NCBI GenBank assembly: GCA_026415435.1
Contig: JAOAHC010000020.1
Location: 15,940 to 79,939 of the forward strand
Length of the DNA stretch: 64,000 bases
Source of the DNA: Clostridia bacterium
Lineage (GTDB): Bacteria; Bacillota; Clostridia; TANB77; CAG-465
Direction: 5' to 3'
Below are positions 29,306 through 45,355 of the stretch, piece by piece (positions within the stretch are counted from its first letter, which is position 1; the number at the start of each line of letters is the position of its first letter). Below the pieces are notes generated by a model. The model saw only the letters and a list, made by a program, of their open reading frames with translations. It did not search any database and was not told where the DNA came from. A program made the position numbers and the translations under genes.

Positions 29306-30490
29306 TTAATTACTCCTCTCTACGAATTTTCCTATTTCTTCATTTATTGTATATGTCTTAATATATTTTATACCTTCTCCAGTATCAATAACTTGATCTT
29401 GTTCTTTAACATAAGACGCATTTTTTAAAGTTAGTATAATTTTATCTATAAAATTTCTTGCATCTACATTTGCTGTATATAGTAAATCATCTTTTGTATA
29501 CTTAACTTGTTTTTCAATATATTGCTCACATTTGTATAAATCAAATGATATTTCTTTTCCAAATATCTTAATGTTTTTACTACTCTTAGTTATATCATAT
29601 TTTTTATTTTTATTCAAATAGTTTAACATATTTTCTTTATTATTTACTGAAATACCTATGGCATATCTATTGGAGTTTGTGTACTCTTTTATGACAGTTT
29701 CATATTTATATTCTTTATCAAAAATATATTCATTATTTACTCTTATTAAGCCCTTTGCATGAACATATACAGGATCCATAACTTTACTTGTAATTATTCC
29801 TTCTATTAATACATAGTTTTCTTCTATGTAGCTACCTTCTTTATATTTAGCAGTTCCATTTTCTGCAATGATTTTTGTTACAACTCCGGATTTGTCTGCT
29901 ATAATGTTACCCGGAATATTAATATTTAATTTATCTTTATCCGCAACTACTACCTTTTCTACCACCTCAATATTAGCATTTGTTCCATTTATAGATATTC
30001 CAGCCCATGACAGATCTGGTATCTTGGCTCTAAGTGAATTTATTATTTCACCTTTTGAAAGACCTATTTTACTCCTACCTACATATAGTCCACTATTTTT
30101 CAATTCTTCTATTATTTGTTCTTTACTAACAGCAGAATTACCGGTAACATTTATTTTCCATACAAATGAAGAAAATACTATTGAGAATATAATCAGTATT
30201 ATAAACAAAGCAATAAATACCCTTTTTTTTCTGTACTTAAAGAATTTAAAATATATACCTTTTTTATCCTTAATTTTAACCCTACATTTTGTTTTTTTTG
30301 CTATTGGCTTTAACTTCTTAAAATCAGAAATATATATTTTAAATCTTATTACACCCTCAACTATTTGTCGTATATCCCATATTTTAACATTATTTATTTT
30401 GCACAAATTAATGAATCTCTCTGTAAAAAAACCTTCTACTTGTACAGTTAAAATACCTGTAGCCTTTTTTATACTATTGCTAATACCCAT
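29306..30490 (-). CDS. yqfD: Sporulation protein YqfD
   Basis: 394 aa with a central TM segment. Typical yqfC-yqfD-ybeY-dgkA-cdd order, although the usual phoH/yqfF genes are absent. Confidence 0.8.
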   Translation of the reverse strand: MGISNSIKKATGILTVQVEGFFTERFINLCKINNVKIWDIRQIVEGVIRFKIYISDFKKLKPIAKKTKCRVKIKDKKGIYFKFFKYRKKRVFIALFIILIIFSIVFSSFVWKINVTGNSAVSKEQIIEELKNSGLYVGRSKIGLSKGEIINSLRAKIPDLSWAGISINGTNANIEVVEKVVVADKDKLNINIPGNIIADKSGVVTKIIAENGTAKYKEGSYIEENYVLIEGIITSKVMDPVYVHAKGLIRVNNEYIFDKEYKYETVIKEYTNSNRYAIGISVNNKENMLNYLNKNKKYDITKSSKNIKIFGKEISFDLYKCEQYIEKQVKYTKDDLLYTANVDARNFIDKIILTLKNASYVKEQDQVIDTGEGIKYIKTYTINEEIGKFVERSN

Positions 30491-31020: not shown

Positions 31021-31698
31021 ATGATAAGAATAGGTATGTGCGATGATGAAATAATTACTATAAAATCTATTGCCAAAATAATTGAATCGAGAATAATAGA
31101 ATATGATTTTGATGCCGAGATTACAACTATAACTGACGATCAAGACAAAATATATGAATTAATAAAAAATAATGCTATAGACGTGCTAATATTAGATATT
31201 GACTTTGGAAATAACAAAAGAAATGGTCTAGAATTTGCCCACGAACTACGAAAAATCAATAAAGATTTTTATCTTGTTTTTTTATCTGCTCATCCGAGAT
31301 ATATGCATGTTTCCTTTGTTAATAAAACTTTTGACTATTTAGTCAAACCAATACATCCTAATGCAATTGCTGAGTTTGTATTTAGATTAAAAGAAGAATT
31401 TCAGCAAAATAAAAAGATGTTTTTACATGTAAACAAATCATTATCGATAAGAACTGATGATATTTTCTATATTGAAAAGCAAGGTAATAAAGCTTTAATA
31501 TATACCAGTACTACAATATACACAATGATAAATAATAGTCTTGATAGATTATTAGATATATTACCTAACAATTTTAGAAAATGCCACAGATCATACATTA
31601 TAAATGAAGAAAAAATACTTAGTATTGATAAAAAAAACGGCAATGTTTGCCTTGGGAAAGATGTATACTGCCCCATAAATATAAAGTATTTGATATAA
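31021..31698 (+). CDS. LytTR-family response regulator (AgrA-like)
   Basis: Receiver domain (IRIGMCDDE...LILDIDF...) plus a LytTR domain (DDIFYIEKQGNKALIYT...CHRSYIIN). Confidence 0.85.
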   Translation: MIRIGMCDDEIITIKSIAKIIESRIIEYDFDAEITTITDDQDKIYELIKNNAIDVLILDIDFGNNKRNGLEFAHELRKINKDFYLVFLSAHPRYMHVSFVNKTFDYLVKPIHPNAIAEFVFRLKEEFQQNKKMFLHVNKSLSIRTDDIFYIEKQGNKALIYTSTTIYTMINNSLDRLLDILPNNFRKCHRSYIINEEKILSIDKKNGNVCLGKDVYCPINIKYLI

Positions 31699-31734
31699 CT
31701 GCTATTTTAGTTAATTATTTTTAGGGGGATTTTT

Positions 31735-33048
31735 ATGTTAAATTTAGTTTTAAATGTTTTCAGTATACTTATCCAAGCATTGGCATGTGGATATTTTATT
31801 GAATCTATTACTCAAATTGGGACTATAAACAAATATGATAAAAATAAAAGATTGATAATTTATTTATCTTTGCTTTTACTGGTTTCTGTTAATAGATTTA
31901 TTGCATTCCCGTATAATACGATAATATCAATAGTATATCAATTTTTCCTTGTTAGCTTTATTTTAAAAGTTAAACCTATAAAATCATTATTCTTTTCAAT
32001 AATATTTTTTGTGGTTTTATCAATACTAGAAATTGTATGTGTATACCTTTTTATGATAATATTTAATCAAAATGGTGAGGAATTATTAAAATTGCCTGTA
32101 TACTACAATTTAGTAATTGTAATGCATAGTGTTTTACTTATGTTTATAACCTATCTGATAAATACTTTTGCAAACAAAAAGGAATTCTTCAAAAACTTTT
32201 TCATTGGAATTAACTTAAAGCAAATTAGATTTTTTCTAATTGTATCATCAATTTGTATAATACCACAAATAATTATATTTGCACTTAATAGATATAATTA
32301 TTCAATACCATTTCTAATACTTAACTCGATACAAATGATAATCTTTTGTTTATTAATATTTACATATATTAAAAGGTCTGCTGAATATGAAAAAACACAA
32401 AACGAATTAACAATATCGGAGTTACATAATAAAACAATGGTTAGCATGGTAGATGGTGTTAGAATACTAAAGCATGACTACAACAATATTATTCAAGCAA
32501 TGAGTGGATATGTTTCAACAAAACAATATGACAAACTTGAAGAACATATATCAAAAGTTTTAAAAGAGTGTAATGCAATAAATACTACATCAACAATAAC
32601 ACCAGAATTATTTAATGAACCTGCCATATATGGAATTGTTGGAGCTAAATATTTTATAGCTATTGAAAAAGAAATAACAGTGGATGTAAGTATAGGAATA
32701 AATATATCAGAGATTAATTTTCCAATGCCTGAGCTTTCTAGAATATTAGGTATATTACTCGATAATGCTATTGAAGCAACATGTAAGGTACCTAGCAAAC
32801 ATATAAAAATTGAGTTTAAATATGATCAAAGAAAAAATGCTGATGTAATCAAAATATATAATACATTTGATACTACAATTAAAATAGATTTAGAAAAAAT
32901 ATTTAATAAAGATTTTTCAACTAAAGAGATAAAGTCTGGAATAGGTTTATGGGAAGCAAAGAAATTGGTAAACAAAACTAAAAATGCTCAAATATATGCA
33001 ACTATTGAAAAAGATAAGTTTGTACAAAATATAATAGTTGAGAGATAG
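31735..33048 (+). CDS. AgrC-like GHKL sensor histidine kinase (6-7 TM sensor plus HATPase_c_5)
   Basis: Polytopic N-terminal half. H-box-like KHDYNN, N-box LLDNAIEA, and G-box SGIGLWEAK. Confidence 0.85.
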   Translation: MLNLVLNVFSILIQALACGYFIESITQIGTINKYDKNKRLIIYLSLLLLVSVNRFIAFPYNTIISIVYQFFLVSFILKVKPIKSLFFSIIFFVVLSILEIVCVYLFMIIFNQNGEELLKLPVYYNLVIVMHSVLLMFITYLINTFANKKEFFKNFFIGINLKQIRFFLIVSSICIIPQIIIFALNRYNYSIPFLILNSIQMIIFCLLIFTYIKRSAEYEKTQNELTISELHNKTMVSMVDGVRILKHDYNNIIQAMSGYVSTKQYDKLEEHISKVLKECNAINTTSTITPELFNEPAIYGIVGAKYFIAIEKEITVDVSIGINISEINFPMPELSRILGILLDNAIEATCKVPSKHIKIEFKYDQRKNADVIKIYNTFDTTIKIDLEKIFNKDFSTKEIKSGIGLWEAKKLVNKTKNAQIYATIEKDKFVQNIIVER

Positions 33049-33073
33049 TTGATTTAGAATAAATATAGAAATT

Positions 33074-33102
33074 AAAATGAGGTGTTTTTGACACCTCATT
33101 TT
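33074..33102. terminator. Bidirectional terminator shared by the convergent agrC-like and agrD genes
   Basis: AAAATGAGGTGT-TTTTG-ACACCTCATTTT lies between the stops at 33048 (+) and 33153 (-). Confidence 0.7.
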
Positions 33103-33152
33103 AGATTAATTTCAATTTATCAAAAATCAACTATTTTTTAATTAAAATAGGG

Positions 33153-33266
33153 CTATTTTTTTATCAAGCATCTTGGTGCTTTTGGTTGATGGAATAACAA
33201 TACGACGCAACTGTTAGTTGATGATCTTGCATATGATTCTACTATTTTTTTCAATAATTTTTTCAT
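33153..33266 (-). CDS. agrD: AgrD-type autoinducing-peptide precursor (37 aa)
   Basis: Too short for the ORF track. SD AAAGGGGGG lies 6 nt before the ATG. Translation: MKKLLKKIVESYARSSTNSCVVLLFHQPKAPRCLIKK. It has an amphipathic leader, a Cys followed by hydrophobic residues, then the HQP..P motif seen in clostridial AgrD. It is downstream of agrB on the same strand. Confidence 0.75.
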   Translation of the reverse strand: MKKLLKKIVESYARSSTNSCVVLLFHQPKAPRCLIKK

Positions 33267-33486
33267 ATAATTCCCCCCTTTTTATATGATATATATCTTC
33301 TAAATTTTTGTTTAATATAACTGTCTAAATATTACTTATACTATTTTGGTAAATATTTAACATTAAAATTATATTTCAAACTATTTCATGAACTTTAAAT
33401 AACATTATAATAACATGTAATTTAGAAGATTATATTTTTTATATATAAGAACAATTCCTAGGTTAATCATCCTTATTATAACTTTG

Positions 33487-34125
33487 TTAATTGCCTATAA
33501 GATCTTTAAATTCGTCTGATTCATAACTGTACTTACACCTTAAAAATCTATACACAGGCTTAGTAGTCATTATATTTATAAATAATAAAACATAAATTAT
33601 CATTTCTTTATATTCCATATTTTTTACAAATAAAATAAACACTAAATATATTAAGTTTATTGATATGAAAGCAAATATTTTTAGTTTCTTTCTTTGTTCT
33701 TTATTAATAATAGGTATTTCTTCAGTATCAGCAGGTGCTATTTTATAAATAACATATACCGATAATATATAATTTAAGATATATAGTATAACTAGTACAA
33801 TATTACTTATATAAGTTACTTTAGCAAGTAATATAGATCCTATCAGATATAGCGTTGAATATATGAAACATTCTATATTTGTTCTTGCATGTGCTCCTCC
33901 AACAAATGTTTTATATACTAAATTAATGAGAAACACCACACCAAGTTGAGGCAATATATTTAAAAAATATGCTATTATTATTATTGCTGTAAATTTAGGT
34001 ATATCTTCTACTATTCTCTTTACTCCAAATAAAAGAATTTCTCTTTTTTCTTCAGATACTTCTTCATCTTTTATAAGTACATTATCCAAAAAATAATTAC
34101 TTATTTTTTCAACCATATCTATCAC
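33487..34125 (-). CDS. agrB: AgrB-family accessory gene regulator (AIP-processing membrane peptidase)
   Basis: 212-aa polytopic protein. ...FGVKRIVEDIPKF...TFVGGAHART matches the AgrB pattern (G.H in the conserved region), and it is adjacent to agrD. Confidence 0.8.
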   Translation of the reverse strand: MIDMVEKISNYFLDNVLIKDEEVSEEKREILLFGVKRIVEDIPKFTAIIIIAYFLNILPQLGVVFLINLVYKTFVGGAHARTNIECFIYSTLYLIGSILLAKVTYISNIVLVILYILNYILSVYVIYKIAPADTEEIPIINKEQRKKLKIFAFISINLIYLVFILFVKNMEYKEMIIYVLLFINIMTTKPVYRFLRCKYSYESDEFKDLIGN

Positions 34126-34302: not shown

Positions 34303-34411
34303 GAAAATATATCATATTACTATTAAATCATATTTATAACTACAAATTTTGCTTTGTTTGTAACATTTATATATATATATCATAACATATGAATAAAGGA
34401 GGGTTTTTTTA

Positions 34412-34611
34412 ATGGAAAAAAACAATAATTATATGCAAACTGATAATAACTTAATACAAATATCAGATGGTGGCATTGTAGGAAAACCTATTGGAATTGG
34501 TGATAACGCACCTAAATTTAGTGCTCAAACTACATTCGGTATGATAAATTTAGATGATTACAGAGGAAAGTGGCTTATATTTTTCTCACATCCAGGTGGT
34601 TTTACACCTGT
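34412..34611 (+). pseudogene. 1-Cys (Prx6-type) peroxiredoxin, 5' fragment interrupted by an integrated element
   Basis: ...GDNAPKFSAQTTFGMINLDDYRGKWLIFFSHPGGFTPV, after which the frame reads into element DNA (GTLLLNLLVKSTVYPH*). The canonical continuation CTTEF is found at 40896 onward. Confidence 0.85.
34603..34611. repeat. attL core TACACCTGT (shared 9-mer at the element boundary)
   Basis: An identical 9-mer occurs at 40886..40894. Both lie in the prx reading frame (..ACA CCT GT.). Confidence 0.75.
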
Positions 34612-34635
34612 AGGAACGCTGCTGTTGAATTTATT

Positions 34636-34689
34636 AGTAAAAAGTACAGTTTATCCTCATTAATTTGAGTTTAAACTGTACTTTTTACT
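34636..34689 (-). terminator. Terminator closing the element's cargo operon (bidirectional hairpin)
   Basis: AGTAAAAAGTACAGTTTA ... TAAACTGTACTTTTTACT (18-bp arms), 16 nt downstream of the stop at 34705. Confidence 0.7.
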
Positions 34690-34704
34690 AATTAACATAT
34701 ACCT

Positions 34705-35175
34705 TTATATTCTGGTAACCTCTATTATAGTAATTTTGCAACCATTGAAATCAACAGTTTCATTAACTTTTTTACCAATAAGTACTTGCGGAATAGGTGC
34801 GTCACAAGATAATATATTGTTATCAATATCACCTTCTCCACTTCCAAGAATATCATATTCTACAATATCACCTTCAAAATTAATTTTTATTCTAGAACCC
34901 ATTATAACAGTTTCACCATCAAAATTGATATATTCAGGCATTTCTTCGATCACAATGCAATTATTGTATTTTTCCCATAGATCTTGCTTTTTCTTAGGTA
35001 ATTCGTACATCGATTTCACTCTTAATGCCATAAAATCAGGATTTTCTCTTAAATCATTATCCATCTTTACGCTTTCACCCATTTTTAAATTTGTTTTTGT
35101 TATCTCTTCATCAATATTTAAATATTCTTTATGTAGCTTTTCCTTACCATTTCTTGTTATATAATATTTCTTCAT
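34705..35175 (-). CDS. GreA/GreB-family transcript-cleavage factor paralogue (element-borne)
   Basis: YYITRNGKEKLHKEYLNI..., a coiled-coil tip motif D41-L-R-E44-N (GreA has D41/E44), and a C-terminal domain VIMGSRIKINFEGDIVEYDILGSGEGD...ILSCDAPIPQVLIGKKVNETV. Confidence 0.75.
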   Translation of the reverse strand: MKKYYITRNGKEKLHKEYLNIDEEITKTNLKMGESVKMDNDLRENPDFMALRVKSMYELPKKKQDLWEKYNNCIVIEEMPEYINFDGETVIMGSRIKINFEGDIVEYDILGSGEGDIDNNILSCDAPIPQVLIGKKVNETVDFNGCKITIIEVTRI

Positions 35176-35642
35176 ATTCCCTCCTTCTGTATATTACAAC
35201 TATTTTGCTCCTCCCTTAATATTGTTCTTGCCTTAACAAGTATTTTACCATAATTATTTTGACCTGTTTTATTAGGTCCACATCCCCAATATTCCTCTTT
35301 AACCGTATCCTCCACTATCTCCTCTTCTCCTGTATCTAATAATTTTTCTAGTATATTTGGATTAGCTCTGAATTTTAGCAAGACCCCTTCAAGCATTATT
35401 TCTTGTTTTACTTTATCCCAGTCTTCTCTTATTTTATTATTTCTATCTCTGCCAATATTAGAAGCTTCTTTAGGTGTTTCTGCATCAAGTATTTCTTGCT
35501 TAATTTCGCATTCGATAACTTTGCTATATTGATAAAAATGTTCATTTGTCTTAAAAAATATATCTTCCTTATAGAAACCATGAGATGAGTATGTAGCTAG
35601 ATATCCAAGTGGTCCAAACTCTTTATAAAAATGTATTGCCAT
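35172..35642 (-). CDS. NADAR (YbiA/DUF1768) family protein
   Basis: IHFYKEFGPLGYL...FKTNEHFYQYSK...EDWDKVKQEIMLEGVLLKFRANPNILEKLLDTGEEEIVE....EYWGCG.N.TGQNNYGKILVKAR matches the NADAR signature. Confidence 0.8.
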   Translation of the reverse strand: MAIHFYKEFGPLGYLATYSSHGFYKEDIFFKTNEHFYQYSKVIECEIKQEILDAETPKEASNIGRDRNNKIREDWDKVKQEIMLEGVLLKFRANPNILEKLLDTGEEEIVEDTVKEEYWGCGPNKTGQNNYGKILVKARTILREEQNSCNIQKEGI

Positions 35643-35644
35643 AG

Positions 35645-37306
35645 CTATTTTCTCCTTTGCCCTGGTATTAAATAGTCATATTTTAAATTTTCTGTATCAA
35701 GAGTCTCATTACCCTTACTCAAATTTATCTTTTTTCTGAACTCAACTTGCCCATTTTCAGCTGAAGTAGCTGAAAGATTAAGTTTTTCTATTACAATACT
35801 GTCCTCATAATCACAACTTAATCTCCATGCGTATCCTTCCATAGTCATTGTACTGTTATGTGACCCATAATTTCTTTCATGGTTTGGAGTTAATGGCTCA
35901 TTTTCCTTATATGTCAGTCCCTCAAACTCCTTTAGCGCCCTGCCAAGATTACATATTATACCTGTATCGATCGTAAAATCAGGATCAAAAAACAAACTTG
36001 CTGAATAACCTGATTCTTGCAAAGCATCCACATAAGAATCTATCATTGGCAATAATTCTAAATTAATATAGTTTGATTTTTCCTCATTATTTACTTTTAA
36101 ATAATTATCTGCATGCTTCCTGCACAATTCTAATACATTATACACATCTTCCCAAGTTGCTGAATCAAATTTATCTAAACTCCCAATTTTAAATAATCTT
36201 TTATATTCAAAAATTGCATTAAGGAAGAATCTCTCCGTTATTATATACCCTGGTCTTTCCCTTTGACTAGTTTTAGGATATACATTTATTCCATAATTCC
36301 CGTTTTCTGTAAGTCTTGGTCCTATTGAATAATATATTCCATCAGAATTGCAGAGCATATAAACTTCTGATAATTTGTATTTTGAAAGCCCCTTGAGTAT
36401 AAATTTATGAGCTATTCTTTGTACTTCCTCTTTATTTCTAGGACTTTCGTATAGACTTATCTCATAAAAATATATCGGTGTTTCTGTTAATTTTATTAAA
36501 TGATCATATGGATCAGCTATCTTTGATATATAAATATTAACACTTTTGTTTTTTGATATATACATATGATTATTAGCACATATAACTGTATGTTCTAGTA
36601 CATTAATATCATAAACTTCACAATTTTTTACTAAAGGTTTATATCTAAGTTCAACACACATCTGTCTACTACCACTACCATATCTATCATAATATGGCCT
36701 GTATAGTGATAAAAAATTAGCAATGTCTTTTGAATAATCATGTCTACTATATTGTGCGCTACCATCATTACACCAACCTTTTGCATAAGGAGTAAATGAT
36801 AATCTAACCCCTGCAAGAGTATCAATTAGAGTATTATTGATTTTTTTGTGCATATCATTTAATTCTTTATTATATCGACTGTATCCAACAGTTGAAATTC
36901 GTGTTTTTACTCCTAACTCATTATATACCAATGCTAAAAATTTATCAAGATAAAAGTAGTTTCCAATATCATTGTCAAGGTATGAAAATATAACACCATT
37001 TCTATGTTCATTTCTATCCCAAACAATAAGAGGAAATTCGAAGTTTCTTTTCAAAGTCTCATACTTTATGGCTGCAATTACATTTCTTTGTCTCTTTTCA
37101 GTCCAATATTCTGTCTTTGTACCAGCCAATTTACTGCATATCTTGCATGAATTTAAACATCCGATTTGTGGTTGAAAGTGCCTTACTTTTGAAAAAAAGC
37201 TATCCGGCAAACTTTCAAGCTCTGCCGCTATTTTCCGCCTCTCATTGTAATCTTCCTCACTTATACCTTGTTCTTCATCTGACAATAAATATTCAAAATA
37301 TAACAT
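35645..37306 (-). CDS. 553-aa protein with an N-terminal CX3CX2C motif (divergent radical-SAM-like) and a ~300-aa C-terminal region of unknown function
   Basis: QIGC50LNSC54KIC57S, followed by segments with radical-SAM-like strand patterns (GVIFSYLDND, TRISTVGYS, GVRLSFTPY). The canonical GGE motif is absent and nothing is recognised in the C-terminal half. Confidence 0.45.
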   Translation of the reverse strand: MLYFEYLLSDEEQGISEEDYNERRKIAAELESLPDSFFSKVRHFQPQIGCLNSCKICSKLAGTKTEYWTEKRQRNVIAAIKYETLKRNFEFPLIVWDRNEHRNGVIFSYLDNDIGNYFYLDKFLALVYNELGVKTRISTVGYSRYNKELNDMHKKINNTLIDTLAGVRLSFTPYAKGWCNDGSAQYSRHDYSKDIANFLSLYRPYYDRYGSGSRQMCVELRYKPLVKNCEVYDINVLEHTVICANNHMYISKNKSVNIYISKIADPYDHLIKLTETPIYFYEISLYESPRNKEEVQRIAHKFILKGLSKYKLSEVYMLCNSDGIYYSIGPRLTENGNYGINVYPKTSQRERPGYIITERFFLNAIFEYKRLFKIGSLDKFDSATWEDVYNVLELCRKHADNYLKVNNEEKSNYINLELLPMIDSYVDALQESGYSASLFFDPDFTIDTGIICNLGRALKEFEGLTYKENEPLTPNHERNYGSHNSTMTMEGYAWRLSCDYEDSIVIEKLNLSATSAENGQVEFRKKINLSKGNETLDTENLKYDYLIPGQRRK

Positions 37307-37310
37307 GATG

Positions 37311-37877
37311 CTACCCCCCTGATAAATTAAAGTATAATTCTCTTATATTTTCATCAATATCCGTTTCATTATTATTAAAATAAATAACATTTTCTAATAA
37401 AGCACCAAACTCTTGTAAAAATTTGTTTTTAGTATCAGTATCATCTAATACCTTATCCAATATTGATTTACCTCTTTCGGTGATTCTAGATTGTCTTAAT
37501 TCCTCCTCCACAGATACAAAAATTGTAAGATCCGGTTTTAAAATTTCATGCCCCATTATATTGTAATCTAAATTTACATTTAGTCCCGCGACTCTGTGTG
37601 AAACAACAGTATCTATTAAATACCTTACACAATATACATTATTATTTTTATAATCAAAATTATTTTTTATATAATCTGACATGTATACCACTGAAGACAA
37701 ATAATATAAATAATGGGCCATTTGCGAACATTTTCTAACATCTTTATCGATTAAATCCCGACTAGAATATTCTAAACTAGGTGTTTTTACTAATATTGAG
37801 TTTTCATCCATTTTGTGTAACTTCTCTGCTATTGTACTTGTTCCCGATCCATCCAATCCTGTTATAACAGTAAGCAT
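37311..37877 (-). CDS. Thymidylate/dNMP-kinase-like P-loop protein with a non-canonical Walker A (GLDGSGTST)
   Basis: MLTVITGLDGSGTSTIAEKL..., PDLTIFVSVEEELRQSRITERG (a Tmk-like strand plus lid Arg). Start set at the ATG at 37877, preceded by AAAGGAGGAGA (the track lists an upstream start at 37931). Confidence 0.6.
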   Translation of the reverse strand: MLTVITGLDGSGTSTIAEKLHKMDENSILVKTPSLEYSSRDLIDKDVRKCSQMAHYLYYLSSVVYMSDYIKNNFDYKNNNVYCVRYLIDTVVSHRVAGLNVNLDYNIMGHEILKPDLTIFVSVEEELRQSRITERGKSILDKVLDDTDTKNKFLQEFGALLENVIYFNNNETDIDENIRELYFNLSGG

Positions 37878-37990
37878 ACAGCTCTCCTCCTTTTTAAATT
37901 TAAATAAGATAATCAACAACATGATGTACATTATATACTGATTTCTTTGCGATATTTGTCGAATTATAAATTTGTGTGTAAAATAATAAC

Positions 37991-39574
37991 TTAAGAATTA
38001 ATTATTTTGTCAATATTTATCCTAAGATGAACCTCTATACTTTTATCCTTATAAACATATATTTTATCTACTAATAAAATTAACAAATATCTGTCTATTT
38101 CTCCTCTATCTATTATGCTATTTAATATATCTAATACTGTTTTTTTTGAATCATTTGCTACTTTAACATTGTTTTTCTTAATGTTTAGTATGTTATTTTC
38201 TATATTAATTAAATTTTGTTTTTTATTCATTTCTAACTCTTCATATACATTTTCAATTAATTGTTTTTCTTGTATTAATTTTTGCTTTGATAAATCTTTT
38301 ATTTTTTGATTAATTAAAATTTTAAGTTCATTCTTTAAAAGATTTTTTCTTTTAATTAAATCTAATATATATTTGTCTTCATTATTTGTTTTTTCATCAA
38401 TTATTAAAATATTACTTAAAATATCAATATAATGTTGTTTAAAAACTTTAATAAATTCAACTAATTGTATTTTTATATAGTTTTCATGTATTTCTCCGCA
38501 AGAACATCTTGAAGATCCATATTTTATATAGTTAATACATGAATACCCTACTATTTTTATATTTTTAGCTCTTTTTATTTTTCTCCCTGACATACAAGAT
38601 CCACATTCCCCACATCGTATTAATCCACTAAATAAATATTCTGTTTTATTCTTATTATCATTATATATTTTTTTATTTTTACTATCTCTTAACTTTTTAG
38701 CTAACAAAAAATCATCTATAGATATAATTTGTTCATGGTGATTTTCAAATCTATAATTTTGCTCTTTTGGAAGTAGCTTTGAACGTCCTCTTATTGATTG
38801 AACTGCTTTTTTATGAGTAATTAAAGTACCAGTATATATTTCATTATCTATTATTTGTTTTATCATATATGTACACCATGTTGGTTGTATTTTATGTTTA
38901 TATATTTTTCCTTCTTGTTCAAATTTTTGGCTATAATATAAAGATGGAGTCGGATAACCTTTTTCATTTAACATTTTACAAATTTGAACGTATCCAAATC
39001 CTTCCTTAATGTACAATTCAAATATGTACTTTATTATATGTTTTACTTCATCATCAACAATAAGTTTAGTTTTATCTTTTGGATCCTTAATATATCCAAA
39101 ATATTTTCCCATTATGAGCCTACCAGATTTTTGTCTACTATGCATACTTGATTTGACTTTACGTGATATGTCCTTTACATACTTTTCATTGTACCAAGTA
39201 GTTATACCTATAGTATCATTTTGATCTGCTTGAAGATTGTATATTCCACCCGAATCATGTAAAACTATTAGATTTTTCCCACTTTCTTTTAAATCATCTA
39301 GAAATACTAGAGTTCTGCCGTTATTTCTTCCTACTCTTGACATGTCCTTAACAACAATTGTATCTACTAATCCAGTTTCAATATCTTCTAACATTTCATT
39401 CCATGCCGGTCTATCAAACTTATACCCTGAAACATTGTCATCAATGTAAAATTTTCTTACATTTAAATTCTGAGAATTAGCATATTCTAATATCATATTT
39501 TTTTGCTCTTCTATGCTAGAAAAATTATCTAAATTATCATCTCTGCTTAATCTACAATAACCTACCAAATTCAT
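37991..39574 (-). CDS. Large serine recombinase (resolvase domain, recombinase domain, zinc ribbon, coiled coil)
   Basis: MNLVGYCRLSRDD (catalytic Ser), DDNVSGYKFDRPAW, VVKDMSRVGRN, Zn ribbon CGECGSCM...YSCINY...SRCSC, and a Lys/Glu-rich coiled coil. Confidence 0.9.
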   Translation of the reverse strand: MNLVGYCRLSRDDNLDNFSSIEEQKNMILEYANSQNLNVRKFYIDDNVSGYKFDRPAWNEMLEDIETGLVDTIVVKDMSRVGRNNGRTLVFLDDLKESGKNLIVLHDSGGIYNLQADQNDTIGITTWYNEKYVKDISRKVKSSMHSRQKSGRLIMGKYFGYIKDPKDKTKLIVDDEVKHIIKYIFELYIKEGFGYVQICKMLNEKGYPTPSLYYSQKFEQEGKIYKHKIQPTWCTYMIKQIIDNEIYTGTLITHKKAVQSIRGRSKLLPKEQNYRFENHHEQIISIDDFLLAKKLRDSKNKKIYNDNKNKTEYLFSGLIRCGECGSCMSGRKIKRAKNIKIVGYSCINYIKYGSSRCSCGEIHENYIKIQLVEFIKVFKQHYIDILSNILIIDEKTNNEDKYILDLIKRKNLLKNELKILINQKIKDLSKQKLIQEKQLIENVYEELEMNKKQNLINIENNILNIKKNNVKVANDSKKTVLDILNSIIDRGEIDRYLLILLVDKIYVYKDKSIEVHLRINIDKIINS

Positions 39575-39774
39575 TTAATATTAATCTCTCTTTCTAATAA
39601 GGTGGTCATATTCTTTTTAGCATCTTCCCTACCACTTATAAATAAGGTTATTTTTCCATATTTTAGTTTAATTTTTTCCACATTTTCCACTATTTTAAAG
39701 TTTTTTAACTCATCACTAATTAAAAAAACTTGCACTAATTTATCTTTATTATGTTTAAAAACTTTAACTTTCAT
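39571..39774 (-). CDS. Hypothetical 67-aa protein translationally coupled to the recombinase (possible directionality factor)
   Basis: AGGTGA RBS. Its stop overlaps the recombinase ATG (ATGA). No motif recognised. Confidence 0.45.
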   Translation of the reverse strand: MKVKVFKHNKDKLVQVFLISDELKNFKIVENVEKIKLKYGKITLFISGREDAKKNMTTLLEREINIK

Positions 39775-39884
39775 AAGTTAAATCACCTAATAAATAACTA
39801 TGATATAATTAAGTTTTTATACATGTTTAAGGAACCCAATATATATTCACTCTACAGATATATGAAATGGGATATAACCGTATA

Positions 39885-39927
39885 AAAAAGATTATATTAT
39901 AAATAATTTTTAATATAATCTTTTTTT
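39885..39927 (-). terminator. Terminator between the 275-aa gene and the recombinase operon
   Basis: AAAAAAGATTATATTA ... TAATATAATCTTTTTT, flanked by A/T runs. Confidence 0.6.
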
Positions 39928-39968
39928 CTTTTTATTTGCATATAAAGAAATTAATCAAAATTTAAGTA

Positions 39969-40796
39969 CTAAAATAAATTTACAATAAATTTTACAACAA
40001 CATCTCCTATAATTCCCCAAAATAAAATACCCATGAACGGTAATATAATAAATTTCACCCACCATTTATTGGTAAACATTTCTAGAAATCCATATGGGGT
40101 AAATCCGTATAAATCTTTCCAATTGGAATTTGTTTTTAAAGTATTCTCGTGTGCCCTTTCAATTATATTTGCAATACAATCTACTTTTCTCAAAGTAGAC
40201 CTATGTAACTTAATATATTCGTGATTTTCAAAAGCATCCGCTTCCTCCTGCCCATTAAGAAAATCTTTATTACTTATATTATTTTTCTTTATTAGACTTT
40301 CAAATCTAGGATGGTTTATATAGTTCACACCATATTTTGCTATTAGAATACGTGCTAAATCTATTTTATTTTCATCTTCAAGTGTATATATTTCATAATC
40401 TATCCTTTTACCTCTATTTAAAACTCTATATCTGAATAGTATTGCATCAAATCCATAATGTACATCTCTCATGTTCAAATGTATCCATATATACTTTCTA
40501 TTCTTTTTTAAAAATTCTAAGAATTCTTGTAACATTTCTCTTTCAAGTTCATCATAGTGATTTATTATTTCCTCAAGTTTTATTCCTTTCAATTCAGCCT
40601 GCATGTGTATTGAAAAAGATTTTGTTTGACCAGTTTTCAAAAAACGCACAGCTATACATGTTATTCTTGAAGATTTACTACCCATATCTTTATAGAAGCT
40701 CTCACATGAATAGTGAATTATCAAATACTTATCCTCATTTTGAAATATCTCCTCTAAAACTTTAATTGTATTCTTATGTTTTTTTAATCTCTTCAT
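39969..40796 (-). CDS. Hypothetical 275-aa protein with a C-terminal TM anchor (element-borne)
   Basis: C-terminal WWVKFIILPFMGILFWGIIGDVVVKFIVNLF. The N-terminal domain has faint DnaQ-like spacing (IIHYSCESF ... WIHLNMRDVHYGFDAI), not enough for a call. Confidence 0.45.
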   Translation of the reverse strand: MKRLKKHKNTIKVLEEIFQNEDKYLIIHYSCESFYKDMGSKSSRITCIAVRFLKTGQTKSFSIHMQAELKGIKLEEIINHYDELEREMLQEFLEFLKKNRKYIWIHLNMRDVHYGFDAILFRYRVLNRGKRIDYEIYTLEDENKIDLARILIAKYGVNYINHPRFESLIKKNNISNKDFLNGQEEADAFENHEYIKLHRSTLRKVDCIANIIERAHENTLKTNSNWKDLYGFTPYGFLEMFTNKWWVKFIILPFMGILFWGIIGDVVVKFIVNLF

Positions 40797-40885
40797 ATTT
40801 TACCTCACAGAATAATTAATTATACCATAATTTGTCATATTTTTCAATATGTACTAGCTAATTATACATTCTACAGCAACTATTC

Positions 40886-40894
40886 TACACCTGT
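40886..40894. repeat. attR core TACACCTGT
   Basis: Identical to 34603..34611 and followed by TTGCACTACTGAATTT (C-T-T-E-F). Confidence 0.75.
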
Positions 40895-41492
40895 TTGCAC
40901 TACTGAATTTATTTCTTTTGCTAAATATTATCCTGAATTTATGAGAAGAAATACATATTTACTAGGTCTATCTGTAGATAGCATACCTTCAAATCTTGCT
41001 TGGGTATACAATATATACAGAAATACTGGTATTCAAATACCTTTCCCTATAATTTCGGATAGAGATATGAAAGTTTCTAAAGCATTTTCAATGATTTCAG
41101 ATAACTCTGATAATTTTCACAATATAAGAAATGTATATATAATTGATCCTAATCAAAAAATTAGAGCTATATTGCAGTACCCCCCAACAACTGGAAGAAA
41201 TATAGCAGAAATTTTGAGAATTTTAGAGGCTTTACAATTAACTGATCAAGATAATGTAGCTACACCTGCAAACTGGTTACCAGGGCAACCTGTAATTTTA
41301 CCTTATCCTCAAACATACGACGAATTAATTGAAAGAGCTAAAAATCCTGCAGGATATAACTGTGTTGATTGGTATTTATGTTTTAAACAAGAACTCCCAA
41401 CTCAAAAAAACATGGTAAATATACCAAACTTTCCGCAAGTAGAATGTACAAATGCATATTCTTTTAATCAACCTGTTAATATGATGGTATAA
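40887..41492 (+). pseudogene. 1-Cys peroxiredoxin, 3' fragment (from ..TPVCTTEF onward)
   Basis: The frame is open from ACA CCT GTT TGC ACT ACT GAA: TPVCTTEFISFAKYYPEFMRRNTYLLGLSVDS...AWVYNI...IPFPIISDRDMKV...RNVYIIDPNQKIRAIL.YP.TTGRNI.EILRIL.ALQ...ATPANW.PG. It is in frame with the 5' fragment once 34612..40894 is removed. Confidence 0.85.
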
Positions 41493-41512: not shown

Positions 41513-41707
41513 ATGGATAATAGTATGTGTAACACTGACAACAAATGTGTAAATAAAGGATTTAATTTATTTGGAGGAAATTGCACTTGTATAATAATTA
41601 TTATTGTTATATTATTTGTATTCTTCTGTTTATGTGGAAATAAAAACAAAAACTGTAATCCTAGTTGTAATGATAATAATTTTAATTGTAACTACGATAA
41701 TGTGTAA
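41513..41707 (+). CDS. Small Cys/Asn-rich membrane protein (64 aa), co-oriented just downstream of prx
   Basis: AAGGAGG RBS. MDNSMCNTDNKCVNKGFNLFGGNCTCIIIIIVILFVFFCLCGNKNKNCNPSCNDNNFNCNYDNV, with 11 Cys and one TM segment. Confidence 0.5.
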   Translation: MDNSMCNTDNKCVNKGFNLFGGNCTCIIIIIVILFVFFCLCGNKNKNCNPSCNDNNFNCNYDNV

Positions 41708-41777
41708 TAGAATACATAGCATTAATACAAATAAAAAAACAATTGAGCTTACTTATGTAAGTTCAATTGCTTTATAT

Positions 41778-44700
41778 TTATTCAAATAGATTCATGATAT
41801 CCTCTTTAGATAATTTATTAATAAATGTTTCTTCTGTGCTTAACATATTTTCTGTAAGTTTAGACTTTTTCTCTTGAAGTTCATTTATTTTTTCTTCAAT
41901 GGAATCTTTTGTTATTAATTTATATACTTGCACATTATTTTTTTGACCGATTCTGTAAGCTCTATCTGTAGCTTGATTTTCAGCAGATAAATTCCACCAT
42001 GGGTCATAATGAATAACCACATCAGCTCCAGTAAGATTTAGCCCAGTTCCACCAGCTTTAAGAGAAATCAAAAATACATCTATATTTTCATTTGTATTAA
42101 AGTCGTTTACTAGCTGCATCCTCTCCTGCACTTTCGTACTTCCAGTAAGCTTATAATAATTTATTTTTTCCTTTTTGAACTCTTTTTCTAGTATTTCAAA
42201 CATTGAAGTAAACTGTGAAAATAACAAGACTTTATGACCGCTTTCTGTTGCATCTTTTACTATTTCAATACATTGATTTAATTTGCTACTCTTTCCATTA
42301 TAATTATCAATAAATAGAGATGGATGACAGCATATTTGTCTAAGCCTAGTAAGTATAGCAAGTATTTTAATTTGACTCTTTTCAAACCCATTACTATTTA
42401 TTTCATCTTGCAGATCCTGTTTTGCCTTCATAAGATGTGAAAAATATATTCTTTTTTGTTCATCATCCATTTCATTATTTAATATAGTTATTGTTTTATC
42501 TGGCAATTCAGTTAAAACTTCTTTTTTCAATCTTCTTAATATAAATGGTTGTATCAGGGTCTTTAATCTGTCTAATTTTTCACCATCTTCTTCCTTTACT
42601 ATTGGCATTTCATAATTTGATTTGAACTTTGAATAGTTGAAAAGATATCGTGGCATAACATAATCAAAGATTGACCATAACTCTGAAAGAGAGTTTTCTA
42701 TCGGTGTACCTGTTAAAGCAAATCTTGTTTGAGCGTTTATACTTTTTAGTGCTATAGCATTTTGAGTACTACTATTTTTTATATATTGGGCTTCATCAGC
42801 AATTATATATTTAAATATATAATTTTTTTCTTTATATATGTCAATATCTCTTTTTAGTAAATCATATGAAGTCACAATTAAATCATACTTATCAATTAAA
42901 TCTATTTTTTGCTTTCTTTCCTCTAATTTTCCATTTATAACTAACGTGGATATATTTGAGCTAAACTTTTTAATTTCGTTTTCCCAATTAAGAGTAAGTG
43001 AGCTTGGACATACAACTATACTAGTCTTTTTATCTTCTTTTGAATTATTAACATAATCTGATATAATTGCAATAATTTGAAGTGTTTTTCCAAGTCCCAT
43101 ATCATCTGCAAGTATGCCTCCAAAATTATATTCATCTATTATTTTTAACCATTTATATCCTATTTTCTGATAATTTCTTAAAACATTTTCAAACTCAGTT
43201 GGTAAGATTATTTTTTCATCAAATTCTCTATCAAGAGTCTTATTTATAATATTTTTATAATTATAATTTCTTGTTATTTGAGTATTCTTAATATTATCCA
43301 ACAACTTTTCTAAATATATGCTTCTATATATAGGAACATTTATTTCTCCAGATGATAATTCTTTGTAATCTAAATCCATACCATCAACTAGATTATCTAT
43401 GAAAGCTATGTCAGAATTTTCTTCAAGTTTTAAGAAACTTCCATCCTTTAACCTATGATATTTTTTCTTTATATTATACTTTTTTAGTATATCTTTTAAT
43501 TCTGATCTATCAAAATCAAAGCCACTAAGTTCAATATTTAATAAGTTGTTTTCAATTTTTACACCTATATTACCAAGCTTTGCCTGTCTAATTTGCTTTG
43601 ACTTAAATTCATCTGAAACCATAACTTGATATTTATTTGTATACTCATTTACCCCTGAATTTAAAAAATCATATATTTTATCATCATCTTTTAAAACAAG
43701 TATGTTCTTTTGTTTATCTTGTTCAAATCCAGTCTTACTAAATGTCACATACGCTCTTTTTTCTTGAACTATATTTCTTACTATTGTTAACTCCTCAGAT
43801 TTTTCATATGGATTAAACTCTATTTCTCCATAACAAAATTTTATATTTGCTTCTATATTATGTTTTGAGTTATAATCTAAATATATTTTTACAAATAAAT
43901 CTTGAGGTATATATTTTTCAATTTCTGTATTCTTAAATTCATCTAAATTAATGTTATTTTTTATTTTTGGAACCACTAAAGAAAATAGTGATGAAAGATC
44001 ATCTTTTCTAAATGTTATTTCATTAGTTTGATTCTGACTGTATATGTCTAATATTTTTATAGTATTTTTTGAAAAACCTTCACTACATCTGTATAAATTA
44101 TTATCAACGAATAGATATGCATGGTAATCTGTTTTATACATCTCATACTTAATAGGAGTTTCATTAATTAAACCGTATTCTGTTTCATTTAATTTCTTTA
44201 TATTAAATTTTATCTCGGGTTCCCCGTCTAAAAATGTGTAGTCTTGAGTATAGTGGTATCTTTCAATTTTAACATTACTATTTACTAAAATATTAAATAA
44301 TTCATCAAAAGATATTGAATCTAACTTTATACTTGAAACTCCAAGAACTTTTTGTTGAGATCCATAATAATTATATCTGACAGTTGTATTATCATTAGCA
44401 TATTTAATAATTTTAGAATATTTTAATATAAATCTCACTAATTCTTGAGATGATTCATCAAAACTACCCATATTATGAATAAATTCTAGCTTTGATCCAT
44501 ACTTATATACTTTATTTTTTTCAACATTGTCCATAAATTCAACTAGATCTTTTATTTTATATTGTTGCTTTAATCCTACGCTAAATTCAACTTTTACTTT
44601 ATCCTCAAATCTATCAAAAATTAATTGAGGTACTACTTTTACGTTACCATTTTTAATTTCAGTATATTCATTTATTATATCTACGTTATCTTCTGAATCT

Positions 44701-45128
44701 ATATCATTAAACAAATTTAGAATTCTCAAGCTATCTTGATATTTTCTTTCCATATATATCTTGTTTAAGTCTTCGCTTGAAGTATTATTACTATTTTTTT
44801 GTGGTATTAACATGCGTTTTGCATACTCTTTATTTTCATTAAATTCTATTATAGTTGCTACTATATGTTTACAATAATAGTAATTTGTATCATAATATGG
44901 GCATGCACATTTAAAGTCTTCTATTTTGCCTTCTTCTACTAATACCAAAATATTATATGATGAGGTACTGCCCTTTACTCTAGAATATAGCTTAAAATTT
45001 AAATCATCTTTATATTCTATTTTATATATATTGACTCTTCCTTGATTAACATATGTACGTGCTCTTGATAATAAAGATAGATCCATATTATCTTCTAAAA
45101 ATTTAATTATACTATCATTAACTAACAT
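41778..45128 (-). CDS. SNF2-family helicase with an N-terminal SWIM zinc finger (YwqA/RapA-like)
   Basis: SWIM motif CACPYYDTNYYYCKHIV. SNF2 motifs LADDMGLGKT, DEAQYIKN, LTGTPIEN and QATDRAYRIGQ. I prefer the ATG at 45128 (AAGGTGG RBS) to the track's TTG at 45212. Confidence 0.85.
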   Translation of the reverse strand: MLVNDSIIKFLEDNMDLSLLSRARTYVNQGRVNIYKIEYKDDLNFKLYSRVKGSTSSYNILVLVEEGKIEDFKCACPYYDTNYYYCKHIVATIIEFNENKEYAKRMLIPQKNSNNTSSEDLNKIYMERKYQDSLRILNLFNDIDSEDNVDIINEYTEIKNGNVKVVPQLIFDRFEDKVKVEFSVGLKQQYKIKDLVEFMDNVEKNKVYKYGSKLEFIHNMGSFDESSQELVRFILKYSKIIKYANDNTTVRYNYYGSQQKVLGVSSIKLDSISFDELFNILVNSNVKIERYHYTQDYTFLDGEPEIKFNIKKLNETEYGLINETPIKYEMYKTDYHAYLFVDNNLYRCSEGFSKNTIKILDIYSQNQTNEITFRKDDLSSLFSLVVPKIKNNINLDEFKNTEIEKYIPQDLFVKIYLDYNSKHNIEANIKFCYGEIEFNPYEKSEELTIVRNIVQEKRAYVTFSKTGFEQDKQKNILVLKDDDKIYDFLNSGVNEYTNKYQVMVSDEFKSKQIRQAKLGNIGVKIENNLLNIELSGFDFDRSELKDILKKYNIKKKYHRLKDGSFLKLEENSDIAFIDNLVDGMDLDYKELSSGEINVPIYRSIYLEKLLDNIKNTQITRNYNYKNIINKTLDREFDEKIILPTEFENVLRNYQKIGYKWLKIIDEYNFGGILADDMGLGKTLQIIAIISDYVNNSKEDKKTSIVVCPSSLTLNWENEIKKFSSNISTLVINGKLEERKQKIDLIDKYDLIVTSYDLLKRDIDIYKEKNYIFKYIIADEAQYIKNSSTQNAIALKSINAQTRFALTGTPIENSLSELWSIFDYVMPRYLFNYSKFKSNYEMPIVKEEDGEKLDRLKTLIQPFILRRLKKEVLTELPDKTITILNNEMDDEQKRIYFSHLMKAKQDLQDEINSNGFEKSQIKILAILTRLRQICCHPSLFIDNYNGKSSKLNQCIEIVKDATESGHKVLLFSQFTSMFEILEKEFKKEKINYYKLTGSTKVQERMQLVNDFNTNENIDVFLISLKAGGTGLNLTGADVVIHYDPWWNLSAENQATDRAYRIGQKNNVQVYKLITKDSIEEKINELQEKKSKLTENMLSTEETFINKLSKEDIMNLFE

Positions 45129-45355
45129 ATTCGCCACCTTAAAAAACATATTACAATATAATTGGCAACACATTTTAATTTTAATTATATCATTTTTCTT
45201 TGAATATTTCAATTAAAATTTTCATTTTTTTATTATTTAGTAAATAATTGACAAAAGGTATTTTTATATACAAAATATACTTTATTTTTAAAATGTAATT
45301 TTTTAATATATTATTTTATTAGTAATTGATGTAAAATATTTGTGAAGTGAATTTC

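Follow-up and report, generated by a model that had tools for sequence, protein, structure and literature searches.

An integrative element with a large serine recombinase in a CotE-type peroxiredoxin gene of a Clostridia bacterium, and its possible excision during sporulation

A number of genes that act in the mother cell of spore-forming bacteria are interrupted by elements carrying a large serine recombinase (LSR), and are rebuilt when the element is excised. One of these elements, skin, lies in sigK and depends on the LSR SpoIVCA in Bacillus subtilis and on CD1231, together with the recombination directionality factor (RDF) CD1234, in Clostridioides difficile; further examples are SPβ in spsM, vfbin in spoVFB, vrin in spoVR, and yin in yabG, as well as gin, which interrupts gerE of Bacillus cereus ATCC 10987 and encodes GirC and GirX (PMC5595907). 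In the searchable literature, no peroxiredoxin gene is found among the interrupted genes (sigK, spsM, spoVFB, spoVR, gerE, and yabG). Here we describe an integrative element of 6,283 bp (34612..40894, one copy of its core included) that divides a 1-Cys peroxiredoxin gene (prx, encoding Prx) in a stretch of 64,000 nucleotides from a Clostridia bacterium (assembly GCA_026415435.1, contig JAOAHC010000020.1, positions 15,940 to 79,939 of the forward strand). We refer to this whole stretch as the window, and coordinates are those of the window unless another locus is named; loci on other contigs carry designations of the form L002 and individual proteins of the form P0002. An earlier, sequence-only reading of the window had proposed that a serine recombinase element splits prx and that its precise excision would rebuild the gene, a proposal that the in-frame joint of the two gene fragments bears out.

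Because the prx element is not a phage, it stands nearer to gin than to skin or SPβ. Like gin, it is a non-phage, LSR-encoding element of a spore former, with a 9-bp core that is common to both junctions and forms the centre of an inverted attP; gin also encodes a partner RDF of approximately 6.5 kDa (GirX) and is precisely removed to rebuild a gene of the σK period, features for which the prx element offers putative counterparts (PMC5595907). The two differ in that gin targets a transcription factor and possesses three recombinases, while the prx element targets the active site of an enzyme and has its small open reading frame (ORF) translationally coupled to the LSR gene; moreover, sporulation-specific excision and RDF activity have been shown experimentally for gin, whereas for the prx element both are predicted from the sequence. 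With skin, the prx elements share the use of one conserved target across divergent Firmicutes, the lack of common cargo, a recombinase near the edge, and presence or absence among strains. Skin elements measure 2.6-48 kb; the prx elements of L004, the window, L011, and L008 measure 2.7, 6.3, 7.0, and 8.6 kb, respectively, and that of L003 extends over at least about 12 kb. By contrast, skin is derived from a prophage and interrupts the gene for the regulator σK, so that its excision gates the whole late program, while prx is a downstream structural or enzymatic gene; in the C. difficile element (skinCd), the RDF is a separate gene controlled by σE and SpoIIID and the LSR is constitutive. SPβ, vfbin, vrin, and yin resemble the prx element as LSR elements in mother-cell sporulation genes that excision rebuilds, but all four are prophages or prophage-like, and no phage structural genes were seen in the prx element.

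Anatomy of the divided peroxiredoxin gene

The 5' fragment of prx (34412..34611, plus strand) comprises codons 1-67 and ends, at ...HPGGFTPV, in the left copy of the core sequence TACACCTGT (34603..34611, plus strand; attL). The right copy (40886..40894, plus strand; attR) is followed by the 3' fragment (40895..41492, plus strand), which reads CTTEF and runs on to the stop codon. The left ORF, starting at 34412, passes from ...FSHPGGFTPV into 16 unrelated codons and a stop (GTLLLNLLVKSTVYPH*), and the frame across the right junction reads ...STPVCTTEFISFAKYY... The window holds no third copy of the core; among shuffled sequences the mean number of matches was 0.25, and 4 of 100 shuffles reached two. 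When 34612..40894 was removed in silico, the two fragments joined into an open frame for a 265-aa 1-Cys peroxiredoxin with FTPVCTTEF across the joint. The 9-mer at both junctions, the end of the left ORF at ...FSHPGGFTPV, the resumption of its frame on the right, and a rejoined product of about 265 aa had all been noted in the sequence-only reading, and each was recovered here.

The rejoined protein has all the marks of a Prx6/CotE-type 1-Cys peroxiredoxin, i.e., the AhpC-TSA fold (Pfam, 1.8e-28), the PVCTTE peroxidatic motif, and 1-cysPrx_C (7.3e-12), and it passes the NCBIfam model NF009668 with 267 bits against a cut-off of 211 bits. In an alignment of 11 sequences (the rejoined Prx and 10 intact homologues), the residues that span the joint, F64-T65-P66-V67-C68-T69-T70-E71-F72, are invariant, and the 265-aa frame thus retains every invariant residue across the joint.

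Joining the two ends of the element rebuilds an attP, …AACTATTCTACA-CC-TGTAGGAACGCT…, whose flanks show complementarity at 17 of 22 positions about the central CC, which substantiates the inverted arms that had been seen inside the junctions; no other symmetry centre in the window attP exceeds 11 complementary positions. Written around the crossover, the site reads …TTCTACA-CC-TGTAGGAA…, and in the frame of prx the CC makes up positions 1 and 2 of the Pro codon of F-T-P-V-C. This places the predicted crossover (34607-34608 in the left core copy) two codons before the catalytic Cys, so that the earlier description of a gene split exactly at the catalytic Cys codon is slightly off. The break seems to be placed at the Cys codon because the 9-bp shared core runs through the Val codon. 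The junction sequences can be written as attB …GGTTTTACACCTGTTTGCACT… and attP …CTATTCTACACCTGTAGGAACG… or, in longer form for the window, as attB GGTGGTTTTACACCTGTTTGCACTACTG and attP CAACTATTCTACACCTGTAGGAACGCTG; the attB half-sites fall wholly inside the approximately 45 bp of DNA that encode the invariant motif HPGxFTPVCTTEF.

All seven genes of the element lie on the minus strand and encode a GreA-like protein, a NADAR protein, a 553-aa protein, a dTMP-kinase-like protein, the LSR, a 67-aa protein, and a 275-aa protein; as a side observation, every gene of the element is thus opposed to prx. The LSR (37991..39574, minus strand; 527 aa) has the resolvase catalytic, recombinase, and zinc-ribbon domains of its class (Resolvase, PF00239, 1e-24; Recombinase, PF07508, 1.2e-19; Zn_ribbon_recom, PF13408, 2.1e-11) and matches the PHROGs integrase family phrog_95 (2.3e-84). 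Its best NCBIfam models are XisF, which acts on the fdxN element of Anabaena heterocysts and thus offers a likeness in developmentally regulated excision in a terminal cell type, and the SCCmec recombinases CcrB/CcrC; the scores, 93.9 against 375 bits and 86.5 against 900 bits, respectively, show that the LSR is a member of neither group. The 67-aa ORF (39571..39774, minus strand) overlaps the start of the LSR gene by 4 nt (ATGA), so that the earlier description of a 527-aa serine recombinase with a coupled 67-aa ORF stands. As a conserved partner of the LSR, this ORF is a candidate RDF; RDFs carry no common sequence signature, and a single-sequence AF2 model of the protein, made without an alignment, reached a pLDDT of only 42 and was unusable.

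Phage structural, replication, or lysis genes, which would mark a prophage, were sought and not found: apart from two families of unknown function, PHROGs recognized only the integrase and the kinase in the window element, and IMG/VR and the GenBank phages contained no LSR relative above 35% identity. The GC content of the insert (27.0%, against 27.5% for the window) ruled out a compositionally foreign insert. The window element is a non-phage, LSR-driven integrative element, and its insertion and potential precise excision represent a large serine recombinase mechanism.

A recombinase family with one target codon

A search with the LSR returned 3,168 homologues at E ≤ 1e-30. Five relatives were looked up (P0122, P0124, P0126, P0203, and P0137, with 56%, 51%, 47%, 46%, and 47% identity, respectively), and all five sit between peroxiredoxin gene fragments, at the same codon and the same CC. 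The elements around these and related recombinases differ in size and content. The smallest, in L004, measures 2,700 bp, lies in a host synteny like that of the window, and holds only a 66-aa ORF, the LSR gene, and a ParE toxin-antitoxin pair, while the elements of L008-L010 (8.6 kb) carry kinase, cyclase, NUDIX, and HIT genes, and an FAD oxidoreductase is encoded together with an AAA_14 ATPase in those of L011-L012 (7.0 kb). L005-L007 represent a complex locus with ToxN, Abi_2, and HEPN/NTase genes, in which the element was not delimited; the far end of the L003 element lies beyond the locus that was fetched. Two attP sub-families can be told apart, with arms containing TGTAGAAT in sub-family A (window, L003, and L004) and TGGGGAAATA in sub-family B (L005 and L008-L012), the latter with a shared core of 15-16 bp. 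Both junctions are at hand for four elements (window, L004, L008, and L011), and in each of them the symmetry centre is the CC of the same Pro codon; L004, L008, and L011 show 15-17 complementary positions of 22, with the next-best centre at 12 or fewer. A homologous ORF of 66-71 aa abuts or overlaps the LSR start in L003, L004, L005, L008, and L011. Both the anatomy of the element and the family-wide specificity for this target are therefore firmly established, and the recombinases appear to form a large and undescribed LSR family that targets prx in spore-forming Clostridia.

Two further features of gene arrangement were observed. At the left end of sub-family B elements (L008, L011, and L005), beside the prx 5' fragment, there is a conserved HTH_36 protein (146 aa) and an ORF of 97-101 aa. 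All genes of sub-family B are oriented with prx, while the small ORF and LSR gene of sub-family A (window, L003, and L004) are opposed to it.

An empty site is available for one member of the family. The contiguous Prx P0259, encoded on contig L013, is 98% identical to the rejoined protein of L008, and L013 and L008/L009 share 92-96% nucleotide identity on both sides of the element; the overlap between the two aligned blocks is the 15-bp core and nothing more. The loci thus show a clean polymorphism for presence or absence of the element, which, at the level of sequence comparison, confirms site-specific insertion for the family. The host of the window is without a close sequenced relative, and for the window itself the uninterrupted counterpart is an orthologue of lower identity: the best intact homologue, P0002 on contig L002, is 65% identical, and there prx is preceded by DAGK, YbeY, YqfD, YabP, LytTR regulator, kinase, and AgrB genes and followed by a small ORF, in the same order as in the window. 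A scan of GTDB species representatives for close Prx relatives yielded only one distant locus, L001 (61% identity), and hence no same-species empty attB for the window host. The comparison with related genomes that the sequence-only reading had called for thus produced an intact syntenic orthologue in L002 and an empty-site counterpart, L013, for a sister element.

The L008, L009, and L013 loci showed other differences as well. L008 and L009 are 100% identical from the start of the locus through the prx 5' fragment and the element to the last base of the 15-bp core, and only 93-94% identical past 11657/11658, so that a breakpoint, due to recombination or to assembly, coincides exactly with the region of the att crossover. 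The left flank of L008 contains a NUDIX gene that is approximately 90.6% identical to the NUDIX gene inside the element (1742-2143 and 8309-8788 of that locus), and L013 lacks the left flank of L008 beyond approximately 170 nt upstream of prx; this flank may be another variable island.

These comparisons also bear on the possibility that the two fragments are remnants of separate paralogues or parts of an assembly chimera, and that the 9-bp repeat arose by chance. The shortness of the repeat is the only point in favor of such an artefact, while the in-frame joint restores an invariant 9-residue motif, the two ends of the element rebuild a palindromic attP, the same architecture occurs in at least six independent contigs from different samples, with junctions at the same codon, and a related element has an empty-site counterpart. 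We consider this explanation refuted, and its probability negligible.

The same gene is also the target of a second recombinase. In L005 and L006, prx is cut twice, at FTPV|C and at NASHLAW, and the element at the latter site (site 2; 4.6 kb, L005 12786-17417, also present in L006) carries Abi_2, an NTase fragment, its own LSR, and its own inverted att arms (AAAGTTACCAA). The site-2 LSR is approximately 31% identical to the LSRs of site 1. That several unrelated recombinases use one gene fits the idea of mother-cell genes as safe sites.

The family may be of use beyond this locus. It provides natural replicates, including a 2.7-kb minimal element, two attP sub-families with one crossover dinucleotide, and a second LSR lineage elsewhere in the gene, for the study of LSR target choice, of RDF evolution, and of the fitness cost of a split gene. 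In genome annotations, a split prx is likely to appear, wrongly, as a pseudogene or a truncated peroxiredoxin, and the LSR/attB pairs, which recognize a sequence conserved in peroxiredoxins generally, may interest genome engineers.

Programmed excision or mobile island

Several features suggest that prx is expressed late in the mother cell. A σK-type promoter motif, AC-N16-CATAACATA (34363..34389, plus strand), starts 49 nt upstream of the prx ATG, and AC-N16/17-CATAnnnTA was found upstream of prx in 7 of 9 independent loci (window, L002, L003, L004, the L008/L009/L013 group, L011, and L040); L042 has a one-base near miss and L001 no match. The motif starts 49-55 nt before the ATG in most loci and 98 nt before it in the L008/L009/L013 group. 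Its density over all loci, 9.4e-5 per nucleotide and strand, amounts to a chance of approximately 0.7% per 75-nt upstream window, and none of the 49 other upstream regions of long ORFs in the window contains it. In C. difficile, σK promoters combine an AC at -35 with a -10 element common to σE promoters, and cotE, the gene for a coat protein that combines a peroxiredoxin with a chitinase, depends on σK and has a mapped σK promoter (PMC3789822). The window Prx belongs to the same Prx subfamily as the 1-Cys peroxiredoxin part of CotE, and its homologues include Prx-GH18 (CotE-like) fusions (P0041 and P0090, approximately 59-61% identity); it differs from CotE in having no chitinase domain, a short C-terminal tail, and a separate Cys-rich mini-ORF.

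A small Cys-rich ORF always follows prx. In the window, where it had been pointed out before, it encodes a 64-aa Cys-rich hydrophobic mini-protein (41513..41707, plus strand), a conserved prx operon partner with homologues after prx in L004, L002, and L042; in L008, L011, and L013 (sub-family B) a DUF1540 ORF is found there, DUF1540 being a domain of the exosporium protein CdeA and among the Pfam families most predictive of endospore formers. In L040 (from a metagenome sample of a Hadza/Nepal fibre study), the intact 304-aa Prx P0040 (3001-3915 of that locus) has a very Cys-rich C-terminal tail fused to it in place of the separate mini-ORF; this locus shows AgrB-kinase-LytTR synteny, a σK-type motif 49 nt before the ATG, and a SpoIID gene nearby. 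Judged by its σK-type motif, its relationship to CotE, and its Cys-rich or DUF1540 partners, prx looks like a late mother-cell gene.

We therefore propose that the element is excised in a programmed manner, as skin and gin are. The LSR would recombine a palindromic attP with an attB of approximately 45 bp (HPGxFTPVCTTEF) at the CC of the Pro codon, and this would leave hybrid attL and attR sites that both hold TACACCTGT; with the translationally coupled 67-aa protein as presumed RDF, the LSR would then excise the element and restore a perfect 265-aa prx. The element would stay integrated in the germ line, where it would supply defence-like accessory cargo, and would be excised in the terminal mother cell, so that the coat peroxiredoxin is made late in sporulation. 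The dependence of prx on σK and the timing of excision in the mother cell are parts of this scheme that we infer. Biology like that of skin, gin, and yin appears the most likely because of the σK-type promoter, the CotE relationship, and the Cys-rich mini-protein, and we regard programmed excision as plausible, an approximately even bet. If excision is indeed coupled to sporulation, a coat-type peroxiredoxin would be a new and apparently very common target beside sigK, spsM, spoVFB, spoVR, gerE, and yabG, and compact non-phage islands with defence-like cargo would be shown to use the terminal mother cell as a place where excision costs them nothing. In a broader form of this proposal, to which we assign slightly less than an even chance, the cotE-like prx would serve, in spore-forming Clostridia at large and in abundant gut lineages among them, as a dedicated 'safe-harbour' pad for accessory or defence islands. 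At least two unrelated LSR lineages would place variable cargo in its active-site codons, and the cargo would be shed from the mother-cell chromosome at the σK stage by means of the mini-RDF, with the coat peroxiredoxin rebuilt; if true, non-phage intervening elements that are excised in development would make up a class both widespread and undescribed.

The chief alternative is that the element is an ordinary integrative (defence) island, which uses the DNA of the Prx active site as a broad-host-range attB, knocks out a dispensable prx that then decays slowly, and excises sporadically with no link to sporulation. The choice of site would suit such an island, as no other ~45 bp of the gene are as conserved as those that hold the attB, and another conserved motif holds site 2, which would maximize host range, and so would the variable, defence-type cargo (ToxN, Abi_2, HEPN/NTase, ParE, and kinase/NUDIX/HIT) and the presence/absence polymorphism at 92-96% nucleotide identity. 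Further points, gathered here, weigh against programmed excision; of these, the lack of a sporulation promoter before the LSR gene, the frameshifted site-2 LSR, and the faster evolution of interrupted alleles also speak for an island. First, with regard to regulation, a search for σE- or σK-type (AC/ATA-N-CATA) promoters upstream of the small ORF found none in the window, L003, L004, or L008; only weak σA-like matches precede the 67-aa ORF and the LSR gene in the window, and a σE-like match was present only in L005 and L011, two loci that are near-identical there. If an element has to integrate as well as excise, it would be unusual for its integrase to be translated constitutively together with the RDF. 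Second, a strict attP pattern for the excised circle of the abundant sub-family had no matches in JGI metagenome contigs and IMG/VR. (A relaxed pattern with the arms only gave 7 matches, all of which lacked the Prx core and were set aside as chance.) Third, the site-2 LSR is frameshifted (+1) in two independent samples (L005/L006 15756-17370), with 66 aa including the catalytic RLSRED region in one frame and the remaining 479 aa in another, so that the site-2 element is probably immobilised and prx irreversibly split in the L005/L006 lineage.

Fourth, interrupted alleles evolve differently from intact ones. The rejoined Prx proteins of the window and L004 each deviate at 5 of 77 highly conserved columns, which places them in the top 4% of 237 intact homologues, while the intact L002 protein deviates at none. 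In Tajima relative-rate tests, 24-31 changes were specific to the window and 6-15 to L002, the counts varying with the outgroup (χ² 4.1-14.2), and the comparison of L004 with L002 gave 28-43 against 8-16 changes; six flanking host proteins were symmetric in the same test (158 versus 144). The deep-branching interrupted alleles of the window and L004 thus evolve 2-4 times faster than intact L002, which suggests relaxed constraint. In a neutral simulation with substitutions only, the probability of finding no stop codon was about 0.20 for 18 amino acid changes and 0.12 for 25, and the open frames may leave room for recent or partial relaxation. Finally, the element is absent from L002, which stands nearer to the host of the window than L004 does.

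Against the island reading, the rejoined prx is full-length with an intact catalytic motif in the window, L004, L008, L009, and L011, even where the LSR has diverged as far as the host. The joint probability of no stop codon in the window and L004 under neutrality is approximately 0.02-0.03, and lower once indels are counted, and the open frames in both lineages argue against long-term pseudogenes. Among L008, L009, and L013, dN/dS is approximately 0.06, a value that mixes evolution before and after insertion and was set aside. The 2.7-kb element of L004 has no transfer functions and looks vertically kept. The conserved σK-type promoter of the target and the presence of two unrelated LSR lineages on the same gene also count against an ordinary island. 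Where excision of LSR elements from mother-cell genes has been studied, skin, SPβ, and gin excise in sporulation, and yin excises in a growth-phase-dependent manner. The history of the elements themselves can be read either way. Between the window and L004, identity is 52.5% for the LSR, 54.3% for Prx, and 45-68% for six host proteins, and an LSR divergence equal to that of the host agrees with a long joint residence; L008 and L011 are more alike in the LSR (85%) than in Prx (75%), a sign of lateral movement, i.e., horizontal spread as expected of an island. The family is both mobile and persistent, as skin is. Overall, we hold an ordinary island to be a serious possibility, albeit one with somewhat less than an even chance. 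The sequence-only reading had set a developmentally excised intervening element against a mobile island with prx as its attB; both descriptions hold in part, and they are not mutually exclusive.

A third explanation is that the element acts as a regulatory switch whose cue is not sporulation but, for example, oxidative stress or infection by a phage, and that its excision would bring back peroxiredoxin activity when needed. The Listeria phage A118, which resides in comK ('active lysogeny'), offers a precedent as an LSR element that splits a host gene reversibly and excises on a physiological cue; it differs from the prx element in being a functional phage, in responding to intracellular growth, and in re-integrating. 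A switch would agree with a reversible LSR insertion in the gene for a stress-defence enzyme, with cargo that resembles phage defence, and with the strong σA-type promoter of the 275-aa gene (TTGAAA-17-TATAAT with an upstream TG; 40819..40847, minus strand; 11 of 12 matches), which is the strongest of its type in the region and sits at the attR edge of the element. However, a regulator or operator that responds to stress was not identified within the element, the promoter of prx has a σK-type and not a vegetative look, and a lineage in which the element excised from vegetative cells would lose it unless it inserted again; we thus consider a switch improbable. The overall number of σ70-like sites did not exceed the shuffle expectation.

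Cargo and chromosomal surroundings

An inverted repeat with 30-nt arms that are 90% complementary (34630..34695) lies next to attL within the element and separates the 5' fragment of prx from the end of the cargo operon. It looks like a bidirectional terminator, and could end both the cargo operon and transcripts entering from the prx promoter. The cargo operon includes four genes on the minus strand. A divergent GreA/GreB-like protein (34705..35175; 156 aa) matches Pfam GreA_GreB at 1.3e-12 and the NCBIfam greA model with 61.8 bits, under its 139-bit cut-off. The NADAR-domain protein (35172..35642; 156 aa; Pfam NADAR 1.5e-30) matches PADLOC PDC-M42C at 3.8e-16 and the NCBIfam model 'NADAR family anti-phage protein' with 71 bits, again under the cut-off. 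A dTMP-kinase-like P-loop kinase (37311..37931; 206 aa) matches Pfam Thymidylate_kin (1.8e-12) and, in PADLOC, PDC-M51B (4.3e-23) and VakA (4.9e-14). Between the latter two lies the gene for the 553-aa protein (35645..37306), which has no Pfam match. The family of this protein is rare, a search of 1.84 billion representatives giving 185 relatives, and has C50, C54, and C57 conserved (CX3CX2C).

The N-terminal ~200 aa of the 553-aa protein are radical-SAM-like. An alignment-based AF2 model (pLDDT 93.8) had radical-SAM enzymes (AprD4, EpeE, BtrN, and phage radical-SAM proteins) as its best Foldseek matches, although these were weak (E about 0.1, prob 0.85-0.97, over approximately 195 columns), and the C-terminal ~350 aa had no fold matches; 4 of 30 family members weakly match Radical_SAM, and one member is fused to a NADAR domain. 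A profile of the family matched only designer-repeat proteins among PDB sequences, which were dismissed as spurious. PADLOC reported no complete defence system, only the single-component matches of the kinase and the NADAR protein, and no match for the 553-aa, GreA-like, or 275-aa proteins. It is nonetheless plausible that kinase, radical-SAM-like, NADAR, and GreA-like proteins form a cassette that is a candidate new nucleotide-directed defence module or a nucleotide-modifying module, in which a radical-SAM-like protein, structurally confident but unclassified, is linked to NADAR and a nucleotide kinase. The 275-aa accessory protein (39969..40796, minus strand), which has a hydrophobic C-terminus, matches phrog_8766 (1.3e-76) and is 37% identical to Streptococcus prophage ORFs, which lie approximately 3 kb from one end of the prophage records; an AT-rich hairpin comes after its gene.

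Outside the element, the prx operon is closed by a terminator-like hairpin (41740..41769, plus strand) with a 13-pair stem followed by a T-run. The window is otherwise an ordinary spore-former chromosome, with genes for Mfd, LigA, UvrC, SMC, SigA, DnaG, MreB, Spo0A, and YqfD; the prediction of a sporulating host is upheld by Spo0A (45663-46475; Spo0A_C 1.8e-44) and YqfD (29306-30490; 8.6e-82), which identify the host as an endospore former. Two 1144-aa ORFs, 1802-5236 and 41778-45212, were considered as possible duplicates and proved to be unrelated, one encoding Mfd and the other an SNF2 helicase. Directly upstream of the prx operon lies an agr-like quorum-sensing module consisting of AgrB, a SpoB_a/HATPase kinase, and a LytTR regulator (31021-34125), and this module is also kept in L002, L004, and L040, with host proteins 45-68% identical.

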